A DNA stretch of 46,786 bases from positions 2,963,334 through 3,010,119 of the forward strand of contig CP070751.1 in NCBI GenBank assembly GCA_020348445.1. Reading direction: 5' to 3'. The position numbers and the translations under genes were made by a program. Origin of the DNA: Thermoplasmata archaeon. Lineage in GTDB: Archaea; Thermoplasmatota; Thermoplasmata; GCA-020350865. Below are positions 40,027-43,632 of the stretch, piece by piece; position 1 is the first letter of the stretch; each line of letters starts with the position of its first letter. Below the pieces are notes generated by a model. The model ran no database searches and was not told the DNA's origin. It was given only the letters and a program-made list of their open reading frames with translations.

Positions 40027-40691
40027 CTGCCAATCTCCTCTTTCTCGGGCAATTGGGCTATTTTCTCCCTGAACTTATACAGTTTAAGTATCCTCTGCAG
40101 AACCTGGGAAAACGGAATAGAAAGAAGAGAGTAAAGGATGATCCAATTTGGAAAAAAGCATACATCTCCTCGTACTAGGCTGACCTTTGCTGCCCACGGA
40201 ACAGAGATGGTTAAAACTGGTAATTTGTACATGAATACACTTAGCCAAATAAAGATGGGGACCACGAAGATAATGGTTATTGGCATGATCCTCATCTGGG
40301 ACGATGATAATTTCATGCTCATCTTCAATATCTCAGGCTGTTTCTCTTGGAGCTTTTTCACTTTAGCATTATTGTTGGAGAGCCTTGCATCCCTCATCTC
40401 CTTGTTGAAAGTGGATTGGATCTTCTGAATCCTGGAAAGTTCTACCCAGTCAGTTGTGAAGTGCCGCAGGAGGGTGGACAGACTGATGGACATGAGGCCT
40501 GCCAGAAACAAGGTTATTAACGGGAATTTGAAATCAAGGCCCAAAACCGGGGTTAGCGCCGGATCCATTGCATTGCCGATTCCACTTCTGATATTGGGAT
40601 CGATCAATATGAGCATCATCAAAAGGAATATCATCATCATGAGCATGGGTGATGAGCCCATTGATGGCTGCTCTGGTTTTTCATCCGCCAT
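40023..40691 (-). CDS. DUF106 / EMC3-TMCO1 (Oxa1 superfamily) membrane protein
   Basis: TM, coiled coil, TM...WIILYSL pattern; typical position next to cmk. Confidence 0.88.
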   Translation of the reverse strand: MADEKPEQPSMGSSPMLMMMIFLLMMLILIDPNIRSGIGNAMDPALTPVLGLDFKFPLITLFLAGLMSISLSTLLRHFTTDWVELSRIQKIQSTFNKEMRDARLSNNNAKVKKLQEKQPEILKMSMKLSSSQMRIMPITIIFVVPIFIWLSVFMYKLPVLTISVPWAAKVSLVRGDVCFFPNWIILYSLLSIPFSQVLQRILKLYKFREKIAQLPEKEEIGR

Positions 40692-40784
40692 AATTCCTTA
40701 CCCCAATATTTAATCTCGATTTATTCGGGAATACATTGATTTGAATATAAAGTTTGCCAAAAGCCGCATCTCGGTCTTAAGTAG

Positions 40785-40800
40785 CAAAAATGTTATTAAA
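40785..40800 (+). promoter_or_regulatory. BRE/TATA promoter for the hairpin-array/tRNA transcript
   Basis: CAAAAATG-TTATTAAA ends 38 nt upstream of the first GCCGAGG unit. Confidence 0.55.
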
Positions 40801-40837
40801 AGCAAGGGCATTATGCCGTCAGGTTGGCTATCATAAA

Positions 40838-41055
40838 GCCGAGGTAGCCCAGCCAGGAACTCGTGGTGACCCTTTGGGCCCCCACTGTTTCTGTCTGGCC
40901 TTCTATAGTTAACGAGGTAGCCTAGCCAGGTAGTTCGTGGTCCTCCTTCGGAAGTCCACTATACCTGGTCTGGTCCGGCTATCACAGAGCCGAGGTGGCC
41001 CAGCCAGGTAATCCGTGGGGACCTTTCAGGCCCCCACTATACCTGGTCTGGGCTA
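40838..41055 (+). ncRNA. Array of three tRNA-Ser-derived hairpin units (starts 40838, 40911, 40989)
   Basis: Each unit begins with the tRNA 5' sequence GCCGAGGTAGCCCAGCCAGG (or a variant), has a GTGG..CCAC inner stem and ends with the antisense of the D-arm; compensatory changes between units. Transcription is inferred. Confidence 0.7.
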
Positions 41056-41066
41056 GCTTTCATATT

Positions 41067-41166
41067 GCCGAGGTAGCCCAGCCAGGTAAGGCGCGAGCCT
41101 GGAGTTGTTCAAACCGGCAAGCTCGTGGTGCTTTGCACCTCGGGAGTTCAAATCTCCCCCTCGGCG
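41067..41166 (+). tRNA. tRNA-Ser(GGA) with 15-nt intron (41105-41119)
   Basis: Acceptor GCCGAGG/CCTCGGC, discriminator G, anticodon stem CGAGC/GCTCG, long variable arm GGTGC-TTT-GCACC, T arm GGGAG-TTCAAAT-CTCCC; BHB helix CTGG/CCGG. Confidence 0.93.
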
Positions 41167-41189
41167 TATTACTTTATTTTCAAATTTAA

Positions 41190-41304
41190 GCCGAGGGCAT
41201 AAATTAAGATTAATTTGTTGGAGATTTGAACCAGTAGGAGGCCGAATACAAGTCTTAACAAGCTTAGGCCACCTACGACGGTTCAAATCTCCCCCTCGGT
41301 TTTT
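41190..41304 (+). ncRNA. Downstream hairpin containing a copy of the tRNA 3' end paired to its antisense, ending in poly-T
   Basis: 41281-41299 is identical to 41146-41164; GCCGAGGG/CCCTCGGT, GGAGATTTGAACC/GGTTCAAATCTCC, GTAGG/CCTAC and GGCC/GGCC stems. Confidence 0.65.
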
Positions 41305-41400
41305 AAATATCCAGGCTGAAACAATCAAAATACCTCGCCAAAAGGCTTAATAAATTCAGAATCCATATAATAATTGTATTGTCGCGCATTGAGGGGAACC

Positions 41401-43632
41401 ATGATCGATAAGATGGGGCGTCTGATGGTTATTCTAATTGTTATTATGAGCTTTTTCACTGCATTTTTCTCAATTACACCCCAAAAGGTTTCAGCTTACA
41501 CTCCCCACGATCCGATTTCCATATTTGGAAATGACGATTTCGCGACCCAGGCTGCAAACGAAGGCTGGCCTGGGGATGGAACTGAAGGTAATCCCTATAT
41601 CATTGAGGGATACGAGATCAATGCCTCCAGTTCGTCGTCAATAACAATAATATCAACAAATGTTCATTTTATTGTTAGAGACTCATTACTCAGATCAGGA
41701 TCCATTTACACTGCTAGTGTATCAAATGGCACAATAAGTAATTGTACTTTTAAGGATGATTACTATGGAATACGATTCTATTCTTCAAATAATAACAATA
41801 TAATCGGCAACGAATTTTCATTCGGTGAAAGTATATTGATTCTTGATGAATCTAACAAAAACCGTATTTCAGAAAATGAGGATATAGAATATCTAAAGAT
41901 AACGGATTCATTTGAAAATAATATAGTAAATAATACCATAGGAATAGTAATTATCGAGAACTCAGTAGGAATTAATATCATCAACAATACAATGAAAGAT
42001 TCAATTTCTATTGAAGGATACAAACTTGATCCTTGGAACTCACATAATATTACTAAATCTAACTCAATCGATGGTAAACCCATATATTACTGGAAAAATA
42101 AAAATCAAGGAATGGTTCCTTCTGATGCATCCCAAATAATTCTCGCAAATTGCTCAAATATTAACATAGAAAACTTTGATTTCTCAAATAGCCAAAATGG
42201 TTTATTAGTAAGTTTCTCATCAAATAATTATATAGGAAATATTACCGCATCATCCAATTATGGTTACGGTATCGATCTATTTCATTCGCATGAGAATCAT
42301 ATCTCATATAATACCTTCAATTTAAATGACCAAACGGGTATTAATCTCCAATATTCAGATAGGAATAGAATTAATAGAAATAACGTCTCATCAAACGGTG
42401 GATGTGGTATCTATCTTTATAATTCGGATAACAACCTCATTATAGAAAATGAAGTATCGGATAATGAATGGGGTATCTTAATAGAATATTCAGCTGGAAA
42501 CATGATTCAAAATAACAACGTCCAAAAGAACCAAAAAGAAGGTATCGAATTAGATAAATCTGATAATAATCACCTAATTGAAAACATTGTTTTAATAAAT
42601 GATTTTGCTATCAAGCTTGATTCTTCCAACGAGAATTATATTTCTGGAAATAATGCCTCTGCCTCCTCCTATGGTATCTATTTGGATCACTCCAAATTGA
42701 ATAATGTTATTGGGAATATTGTTACTTCAAATTATTGGGGGGGAATTCATCTCATTTATTCAGATAAAACGACCGTGGCTGACAACAATGTATCTTTGAA
42801 TAATGCAGAAGGTATCATTGTCCATCATTCCAGCGAATGTTGGATCAGAAGCAATACTCTTTACTCGAACAACGATTATGGTATCAATTTATTATGGTCT
42901 AGTAAAAATGAAGTTAAAAACAACATCGTCTCGAACCATCCATATTCTGGTATATACATTAATGATGCTGATGAAAATAATATCACTGGCAATATGGCTA
43001 CAATAAACAATAATGGAATTTTCCTTGAATATTCTCATAATAATCTCTTATCTAACAATTCATTCTTAAGAAACAACCAAAACGGTATATTTCTTTATGA
43101 ATCCACGAGCCAAACAATAACATACAACATTATTGAAAGAAATAATTGTGGCATCAAACTTGCAGATTCGAACAACAACATCTTCCACCATAATAAAATC
43201 ATCAACAATTCAAAACAACTGGAACGAACGCAATCAACAAATATTTGGGATGATGGCCAAGGCGAAGGCAATTACTGGAGTGATTATGCAGGTTTTGATG
43301 AGGATGGGGACGGTGTGGGTGATACAGAACTCCCGCATCAGGGAGTGGATTATCATCCCTTGACCAATAAGCGAGGATCTACCTCTCTTGAACCGTGGGA
43401 AGTTCTTTCATTATTTATATTAATAGTCGGGATAATTATCCTATTTATCTGGTCTTTAAATAAGAAGTCAAAAGAAAAGCAACCTGAAGAGGAAATAAAA
43501 GAACATCTAGATAAAGAATCAAAAGACGAGCCGCAGCCTAAAGAGGAGGTAGAAGAAAGTAAAAAAGAGGAACAAAAAGATCTGACAGATGAAACTGAGC
43601 CACCAGGAAAGGATGAGCAAGAAAATCCATAA
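41401..43632 (+). CDS. Membrane-anchored NosD/CASH right-handed beta-helix protein
   Basis: GWPGDGTEGNPYIIEGYEI, many GIxLxxSxxNxIxxN repeats, GNYWSDY, C-terminal TM. Confidence 0.9.
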   Translation: MIDKMGRLMVILIVIMSFFTAFFSITPQKVSAYTPHDPISIFGNDDFATQAANEGWPGDGTEGNPYIIEGYEINASSSSSITIISTNVHFIVRDSLLRSGSIYTASVSNGTISNCTFKDDYYGIRFYSSNNNNIIGNEFSFGESILILDESNKNRISENEDIEYLKITDSFENNIVNNTIGIVIIENSVGINIINNTMKDSISIEGYKLDPWNSHNITKSNSIDGKPIYYWKNKNQGMVPSDASQIILANCSNINIENFDFSNSQNGLLVSFSSNNYIGNITASSNYGYGIDLFHSHENHISYNTFNLNDQTGINLQYSDRNRINRNNVSSNGGCGIYLYNSDNNLIIENEVSDNEWGILIEYSAGNMIQNNNVQKNQKEGIELDKSDNNHLIENIVLINDFAIKLDSSNENYISGNNASASSYGIYLDHSKLNNVIGNIVTSNYWGGIHLIYSDKTTVADNNVSLNNAEGIIVHHSSECWIRSNTLYSNNDYGINLLWSSKNEVKNNIVSNHPYSGIYINDADENNITGNMATINNNGIFLEYSHNNLLSNNSFLRNNQNGIFLYESTSQTITYNIIERNNCGIKLADSNNNIFHHNKIINNSKQLERTQSTNIWDDGQGEGNYWSDYAGFDEDGDGVGDTELPHQGVDYHPLTNKRGSTSLEPWEVLSLFILIVGIIILFIWSLNKKSKEKQPEEEIKEHLDKESKDEPQPKEEVEESKKEEQKDLTDETEPPGKDEQENP

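Follow-up and report, generated by a model that had tools for sequence, protein, structure and literature searches.

Why should 19 nt of the 3' end of a tRNA gene recur 135 nt downstream, there to fold back on an antisense copy of themselves? The question is raised by a tRNA-Ser locus in the 46,786-nt stretch of Thermoplasmata DNA that we analysed (the window, within which positions are numbered unless a contig is named). The window belongs to a 5.16-Mb single-contig genome, referred to below as G000. An earlier note on the same letters had proposed that the downstream hairpin and a set of upstream units make up one designed precursor and are not a random integration scar.

The tRNA gene was identified as tRNA-Ser(GGA), since it has the anticodon GGA (41101–41103), an intron at the canonical position 37/38, a long variable arm and the discriminator base G, all of which we read from the sequence ourselves. 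The Rfam model RF00005 matches over its full length at 41067–41166 with 44.1 bits (gathering score 29). ARAGORN in its default mode called no tRNA in the whole window and in its intron-tolerant mode mis-typed the gene as tRNA-Ala(GGC); in this lineage, tRNAs with introns readily escape detection or receive the wrong type. The gene and its surroundings are composed of the following features:

40784–40803, + strand: candidate promoter (BRE/TATA) for the tRNA-Ser(GGA) unit, preceding the repeat units (motif conservation; putative function)
~40838–40910, 40911–40988 and 40989–41066 (40838–41066 in all), + strand: three 5'-side fold-back units (direct-repeat families D1–D3)
41067–41166, + strand: tRNA-Ser(GGA) gene with a 15-nt intron at 41105–41119 (position 37/38; Rfam RF00005, full-length model match)
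41167–41189, + strand: spacer/trailer of 23 nt, T-rich, with a T3 and a T4 run, like the trailers of module-less tRNAs in the same genome
41190–41197, + strand: X'a, 8-nt antisense of the 3' strand of the tRNA acceptor stem (pairs with positions 65–72)
41198–41219, + strand: A/T-rich linker of 22 nt (the 'side hairpin' of the earlier note)
41220–41232, + strand: X'b, 13-nt antisense of the T-loop and the 3' strand of the T-stem (inverted repeats I6 and I8)
41233–41279, + strand: class-2a inner hairpin with a stem of 5 + 4 bp and a 23-nt loop
41280–41304, + strand: X2, direct copy of the tRNA 3' end (exact over 19 nt, 41281–41299), followed by T5 at 41300–41304 (repeat family D4)
41401–43632, + strand: NosD/beta-helix protein gene, outside the element (Pfam NosD, 6.7e-68)

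All parts that had been assigned to the downstream hairpin, namely the 19-nt repeat, the 13-bp and 8-bp pairings, the inner stems and the terminal T5, are present in the sequence. The direct repeat (41146–41164 and 41281–41299) is 100% identical over 19 nt, for which our own arithmetic gives a chance expectation of ~1e-6 in 700 nt. The 13-bp inverted repeat (41220–41232 with 41280–41292) is 100% complementary, the outer stem pairs 41190–41197 with 41293–41300 and includes one terminal G·T, and the inner stems of 5 and 4 bp pair 41234–41243 with 41267–41276. Folded as RNA, the segment 41186–41306 reaches −52.8 kcal/mol, compared with −24.3 ± 3.3 for shuffled sequences (z −8.6; 0 of 200 shuffles equal), and the DNA folds of the two strands of the element are about equal, at −28.2 and −31.3. 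X'b has two alternative partners, the downstream copy and the real tRNA end; in the latter case, the DNA fold of 41143–41232 has −20.6 (z −5.5). The insert between the two tRNA-end copies is 116 nt long and has neither ORFs nor terminal inverted repeats at its ends. The A/T-rich side hairpin described earlier at 41199–41218 does exist in this copy, but it is weak: its DNA fold has only −1.6 kcal/mol, and 11 of 200 shuffles fold equally well.

The 5' side of the gene is built in a related way. Each of the three units consists of a copy of tRNA positions 1–22, an inner hairpin, an antisense copy of part of the D-arm and a short spacer, and unit 3 folds as DNA with −22.6 on the plus strand and −22.3 on the minus strand (z ~−5). 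The earlier note described upstream units holding the 5' part and a downstream unit holding the 3' part of the tRNA; the copied positions are 1–22 upstream and ~52–71 in X2. The upstream units are not split-tRNA halves, because they cover positions 1–22 only and have no anticodon arm, and the tRNA gene itself is complete; a split or permuted tRNA, or a trans-splicing arrangement, was rejected on these grounds.

Since the units are placed between a conserved promoter motif and the tRNA, they are probably part of the leader. The A/T-rich motif at 40784–40803 is kept at the orthologous loci of G002, G003 and G004 and on one metagenome contig, and in G002 and G004 it directly precedes the tRNA leader. 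The NosD-like gene has a promoter-like A/T box of its own at ~41346–41355. A scan for bacterial-type promoters and terminators was uninformative, as the host is an archaeon. Oligo-T runs are terminators in archaea, and by this precedent the T runs of the spacer would act as terminators here.

Modules of this kind are widespread in G000. With the tRNAs of one 3-kb array left out, 26 of 46 tRNAs have a downstream, in-register direct copy of their own 3' end (threshold ≥9 nt), and 20 of the 46 have an inverted copy of it (threshold ≥8 nt). The copies are found at fixed offsets of 22–28 nt and of ~75 or ~113 nt. All isotypes take part, SeC included, and about seventeen tRNAs have upstream copies of their own 5' end as well. 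The two sides mirror each other, with the order sense, hairpin, antisense upstream and antisense, hairpin, sense downstream; because this layout recurs at many tRNA genes, the view that the locus is not a random scar is borne out. Module arms are 4–22 nt long, CCA is part of X' only if the genome encodes it, and in some copies the core loops are inverted relative to the tRNA. Within one genome, over 20 tRNA loci that are unrelated to each other have homologous spacers and cores. These form discrete classes, at least four of which are distinguishable by spacer and core.

The module at our locus belongs to class 2, in which the order is spacer, anti-acceptor arm, linker of 21–22 nt, anti-T-arm, inner hairpin and a direct copy that starts from the T-loop. 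The remaining two tRNA-Ser loci of G000 have the same class-2 build, and in each of them the anti-acceptor arm matches the locus's own tRNA. More distant versions of class 2 are found at the tRNA-Leu, tRNA-Gly, tRNA-SeC and tRNA-Tyr genes of the same genome. A literature search found no description of such modules, which apparently constitute an undescribed family of small, gene-less fold-back DNA modules at tRNA ends in several Thermoplasmata lineages.

Two further observations were made in G000. A dispersed repeat in seven copies (G000:C1, near 71003, 395434, 2621079, 3219279, 3473564, 3486833 and 4029794) has the class-1 core hairpin preceded by another hairpin, which follows a C-rich tract. 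No detected tRNA adjoins any of the seven copies, so the class-1 core exists outside a tRNA context too. The array left out of the counts (G000:C1:4640570-4643566) packs ~22 tRNA genes tightly into 3 kb; unlike the dispersed tRNAs, almost none of them has an end-copying module, and the array may be of viral or mobile origin.

A BLAST search with the whole locus detected similarity extending past the tRNA in the other four genomes of the genus and nowhere else. We recognised the orthologous locus by the promoter motif and the downstream NosD-like gene, and counted the upstream units in G000, G002, G003, G004 and the metagenome contig L224, where they number from 0 to 3. The occupants of the locus are as follows:

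G000 (the window): class 2a on the 3' side; three upstream units
G003: class 2a on the 3' side, its inner stem altered by compensatory substitutions; one upstream unit and one partial unit
Metagenome contig L224: class 2a on the 3' side; two upstream units
G002: class 2b, a shorter variant, on the 3' side; no upstream units
G004: another module of ~105 nt + 72 nt on the 3' side, then a 22-nt direct copy; no upstream units
G001: on the 3' side the same other module type as in G004, and a decayed class 2b

The orthologous loci thus hold non-coding modules of 90–190 nt, and their flanks are conserved despite the turnover of the modules. Orthologues of the downstream flank and of the NosD-like gene are present in G001, G003, G004 and metagenome contigs, and the genes neighbouring the locus are housekeeping genes. 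Some stretches of the relatives and of G000 read as N in the data examined. An integrase-bearing element between the two copies, which the earlier note had associated with an att scar, was sought in the relatives and found in none of those examined; nor does any of them have an integrase at or near the locus. For the 3' module we found no cleanly joined empty site, so that insertion is something we only infer. In G001, up to three module classes are stacked behind a single tRNA (L210, L211), and each junction is marked by a copy of the 3' end of this tRNA.

A search of the relatives for the same hairpin at tRNA-Ser, as the earlier note had advised, showed that it is conserved there and that its stems have undergone compensatory changes. 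Across six class-2a sequences, 92% of the alignment cells are paired, as against at most 52% when the partners are slid, and five pairs have changed on both sides. The inner hairpin taken by itself has 98% of cells paired in six homologues, with two of its nine pairs changed on both sides, and the metagenome contigs add a third compensated variant of the inner stem. The arms, too, change together with the tRNA: in G003 a T-loop G is found in both the tRNA and X2, and on L224 the arms of the upstream units follow the different D-arm sequence of that species.

Twelve homologous modules were available for a comparison of the individual parts. X'a is present and matched to its own tRNA (third base C or T) in 11 of the 12, and it is retained even where its partner in X2 has been lost. 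About half of the class-2 modules have an X2 whose acceptor part is truncated, and for this reason lack a complete outer acceptor-like stem; in the orthologues, X2 adjoins the same downstream flank. The linker is 21–22 nt long and has a short A-rich motif in common in all 12 modules. Its hairpin, however, occurs in this copy only: eight of the 12 linkers fold to nothing, and the other three form small pairings that differ from it. The 'three-way' junction described earlier is therefore not a conserved feature. Genome-wide, X' is not better preserved than X2 (12 versus 12). Whether class-2a cores cluster by genome or by locus received a mixed answer from segments too short to decide it.

A covariance model of class 2a matches every one of the genus's five genomes at two to six places, most of which lie behind tRNA-Ser. 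In 36 other genomes it has one marginal match (E 0.003), located directly behind a tRNA-Ser in G008. At this locus (L209:334-449, G008:C1, family f5), an intron-less tRNA-Ser(TGA) is followed by an anti-T-arm, a hairpin with a 24-nt loop and a direct copy; the anti-acceptor arm is missing. Two further families, f10 (G025 and G013) and f2 (G005, of the same order), have many tRNAs followed by the same layout, with different spacers and cores. In G005, a direct copy is present at 8 of 23 tRNAs and at 0 of 23 in the control with mismatched tRNA ends, and the tRNA end with its T-run trailer forms a continuous palindrome with an A-run and X', resembling the third module type of the genus. In the GC-rich family f10 the spacer lacks a T-run, and the module there is thus probably co-transcribed with the tRNA. 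At ten parsable tRNA-Ser(GGA) loci in genomes outside the genus and f10, we found nothing comparable.

To what extent the fold belongs to RNA or to DNA was assessed from strand asymmetry and from known RNA families. Of 39 class-1 hairpins, 20 are more stable on the sense strand and 19 on the antisense strand. The sense strand of class 2a has 11 G·T and 5 A·C cells, a difference that is not significant. Rfam, searched with 40600–41500 at gathering thresholds and with E values up to 10, gave the tRNA and nothing else credible. With moderate confidence we favour a DNA-level repeat, because the spacers have T-runs, the modules turn over and decay, neither strand is preferred among the class-1 hairpins and cores are flipped in some copies. 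As X'a persists and G·T is in excess by 11:5, the module may still have a role as RNA or pair with the real tRNA end.

Our best reading, to which we assign about even chances, is that the element is a class-2a copy of a non-coding fold-back repeat of DNA, selfish or near-neutral, in which recombination keeps the arms in agreement with the tRNA. A 3'-side module is made up of a trailer-like spacer, X' (an inverted copy of the last 8–21 nt), a class-specific hairpin core and X2, with the 5' units as its mirror image. Modules may be seeded at a tRNA end by a recombination event that duplicates this end. A folded single-strand hairpin is a possible substrate, as it is with integron attC sites, the CTX phage and IS200/IS605, and a folded single-strand circle that integrates by one strand exchange would leave the order 'site, spacer, inverted arm, loop, direct arm' behind. 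After seeding, as the data show, modules expand, shrink, stack and decay, and their arms continue to match the tRNA. The match is likely to be kept by unequal and inverted-repeat recombination among X1, X' and X2, which would also flip the core loops. The modules are presumably tolerated because they are outside the mature tRNA: the 5' units would be cut off with the leader, and the 3' modules would either lie past T-run terminators or be cut off with the trailer. It counts against this reading that no recombinase can be tied to the modules, and we know of no mechanism by which more than 20 different tRNAs would each readily acquire a matching inverted copy.

The conserved and compensated structure and the high stability of the fold would also be explained by a function of the RNA, either because units, tRNA and hairpin are co-transcribed or because the hairpin is a small RNA of its own that mimics a minihelix or masks the tRNA 3' end. 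Such an RNA could affect processing or stability, or act as a decoy, where tRNA ends are read by RNase P, tRNase Z, the CCA-adding enzyme or toxins that modify acceptor ends. We consider this unlikely, although several observations speak for it: X'a is kept, and matches its own tRNA, in 11 of 12 modules, X' is able to pair with the real tRNA 3' end, and G·T outnumbers A·C on the sense strand. The upstream units probably lie in the leader, between the promoter motif and the tRNA, and the f10 spacers without T-runs make co-transcription likely in that family. In the genus, however, T-runs separate tRNA and module, unit number and module type vary between close relatives, and one orthologue has decayed. 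Moreover, the class-1 hairpins have no strand bias, some cores are flipped, the outer acceptor-like stem is missing from about half of the class-2 modules and no Rfam family matches. The T-run spacer, the variation from zero to three upstream units, the differing or decayed modules of the relatives and the lack of a clear strand bias also speak against the idea of one designed precursor.

Two further explanations do without an RNA function. If replication stalls or the DNA breaks at highly transcribed tRNA genes, fold-back or template-switch copying and the correction of quasi-palindromes might produce the modules locally, with no mobile donor. Arms matched to each tRNA would follow automatically, and the mirror symmetry at both gene ends, the arm lengths of 4–22 nt and the continuous palindrome in G005 would be accounted for as well. 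We nevertheless regard such an artefact as rather improbable, since homologous spacers and cores in discrete classes are found at more than 20 unrelated tRNA loci and the same core is present in the dispersed repeat away from tRNAs, which would require copying from another locus. The other explanation is an ordinary att scar, left by an integrase-bearing virus or plasmid that entered the tRNA 3' end and was then almost wholly deleted, with attL and attR now 135 nt apart. A 19-nt direct repeat of a tRNA 3' end is the classic signature of such an event, integrase C-terminal fragments do occur beside two other tRNAs of G000, and an AbiE cassette there is bracketed by copies of a tRNA-Lys end (see below). 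Yet only 116 nt lie between the copies, the relatives examined have no integrase at or near the locus, and no viral contig carries the class-1 core. A module of ~100–135 nt with an inverted copy is found at many tRNAs in five genomes, and independent deletions would not converge on it; we therefore judge a scar of this type to be very unlikely.

The enzyme that our preferred reading, a repeat maintained by recombination, would call for was sought by protein-family searches. Cas1 (PF01867) has no match in the 5.16 Mb of G000. Y1 transposases (PF01797) are present in all five genomes of the genus and were not found in the module-bearing G013 and G025, and the end hairpins of resident IS200 elements do not resemble module cores. 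Phage_integrase (PF00589) gave only two partial matches in G000, C-terminal fragments (G000:C1:1864225-1864380 and G000:C1:2412539-2412649) beside a tRNA-Leu and a tRNA-Met without modules; these look like remnants of integrases that were split on integration. The class-1 core pattern has nine matches on viral contigs, which we take to be chance matches because none of them has flanking palindromes.

To compare the modules with known systems, we considered those that share their geometry, their size or their attachment site. The attC sites of integrons and the attP hairpin of CTX phage, the latter used by XerCD, are imperfect palindromes that fold as single strands; their units stack, and arrays can lack a nearby recombinase gene. 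The modules have in common with them the order 'site, spacer, inverted arm, loop, direct arm' and the stacking at one attachment point. They differ from attC in having no conserved R-box-like core, in taking arms of 8–21 nt from the adjoining tRNA, in being mostly devoid of ORFs and in using a tRNA end as their site, and no IntI-like integrase was found. An integron attC site was therefore rejected, as the arms differ at each tRNA, the modules have no ORFs and there are only the two partial PF00589 matches.

Short, gene-less extragenic hairpins in tens of copies are also known as REP, BIME and REPIN elements, which are associated with RAYT, and as palindromes derived from IS200/IS605. In IS200/IS605, the 5' foot of the hairpin contains a guide that pairs with a target located at a constant distance upstream, and insertion takes place 3' of this target; known guides are 4–5 nt long and do not differ between copies. 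The succession 'tRNA end, spacer, X', hairpin' resembles this geometry of target, guide and hairpin. The complementary arm of the modules is, however, 8–21 nt long and locus-specific. We rejected an origin from REP/RAYT or IS200/IS605 elements since the distribution of Y1 transposases does not track the modules and the IS200 ends are unrelated.

Casposons encode a casposase of the Cas1 family, have terminal inverted repeats and generate a 14–15-bp target duplication that overlaps a tRNA end (PMC5137440). With these and other integrative elements that target tRNAs (those with SSV- or pNOB8-type integrases), the modules share insertion at a tRNA 3' end, a direct duplication of 15–20 nt, an intact tRNA and the possibility of tandem occupancy. 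They are unlike them in their size of ~116 nt, in the lack of genes and terminal inverted repeats and in the inverted copy of the site inside the module. A casposon or mini-casposon was rejected, as G000 has no Cas1 and the insert ends have no terminal inverted repeats.

The WHO elements of yeasts, which are reportedly homing-like and follow a 'replace and displace' mode, are said to leave rows of displaced 3'-end copies downstream of an intact gene. They encode a nuclease and target a protein-coding gene, whereas no nuclease is linked to the modules described here.

Candidates of other kinds were discarded as well: H/ACA and C/D guide RNAs, for which there are no boxes and no Rfam support, and a primer-binding site of the retroviral type, as X' complements the genomic 3' end and not a CCA-tailed tRNA.

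The closest known kinds, namely attC sites, palindromes derived from REP or IS200/IS605 elements, and tRNA-targeting elements, each fail at least one tested defining feature, and to our knowledge no REP, MITE, attC or att-scar family with arms copied from the neighbouring gene has been described. We see a fair chance of a new mechanism behind the modules. If our picture of them is right, they represent a class of small repeats in which the arms are copied from the adjoining gene instead of being fixed. An account of how the inverted copy arises and stays matched would reveal a new recombination chemistry that depends on hairpins or guides, a strong process of templated mutation at genes with high transcription, or an RNA that mimics the ends of tRNAs. 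In practical terms, modules could be mistaken for prophage att sites or pseudo-tRNAs, and they mark the flanks of tRNA genes as fast-changing regions in such genomes.

One tRNA of G000 adjoins larger inserts. The last 16–19 nt of a tRNA-Lys (G000:C1:2800753-2800906, minus strand; locus L208, G000:C1:2797500-2801300) recur ~0.45 and ~2.55 kb downstream, and these copies bracket an ORF for a membrane-like protein of 94 residues and an AbiEi/AbiEii toxin–antitoxin pair; a recombinase gene is not among them. tRNA ends in G000 thus do act as junctions for inserted DNA. More speculatively, and in our estimation improbably, an active recombination system that has not been described may use tRNA ends as attachment sites, its substrates being small, folded, single-strand (dumbbell-like) modules with a stem templated on the adjoining tRNA end, and the same junctions would also accept AbiE-type cassettes. 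If this were true, tRNA 3' ends would be accretion platforms like integrons or CRISPR arrays, and could be retargeted through nucleic-acid complementarity.

Two observations concern tRNA-Ser(CGA) loci. In G002 (L040), a candidate AbiEi-type antitoxin gene, recognised by eye, follows the tRNA-Ser(CGA) module. On two metagenome contigs (L222 and L225), a tRNA-Ser(CGA) with a class-2a module is followed by a paralogous NosD-like gene, so that tRNA-Ser, module and beta-helix gene have apparently been duplicated as a block.
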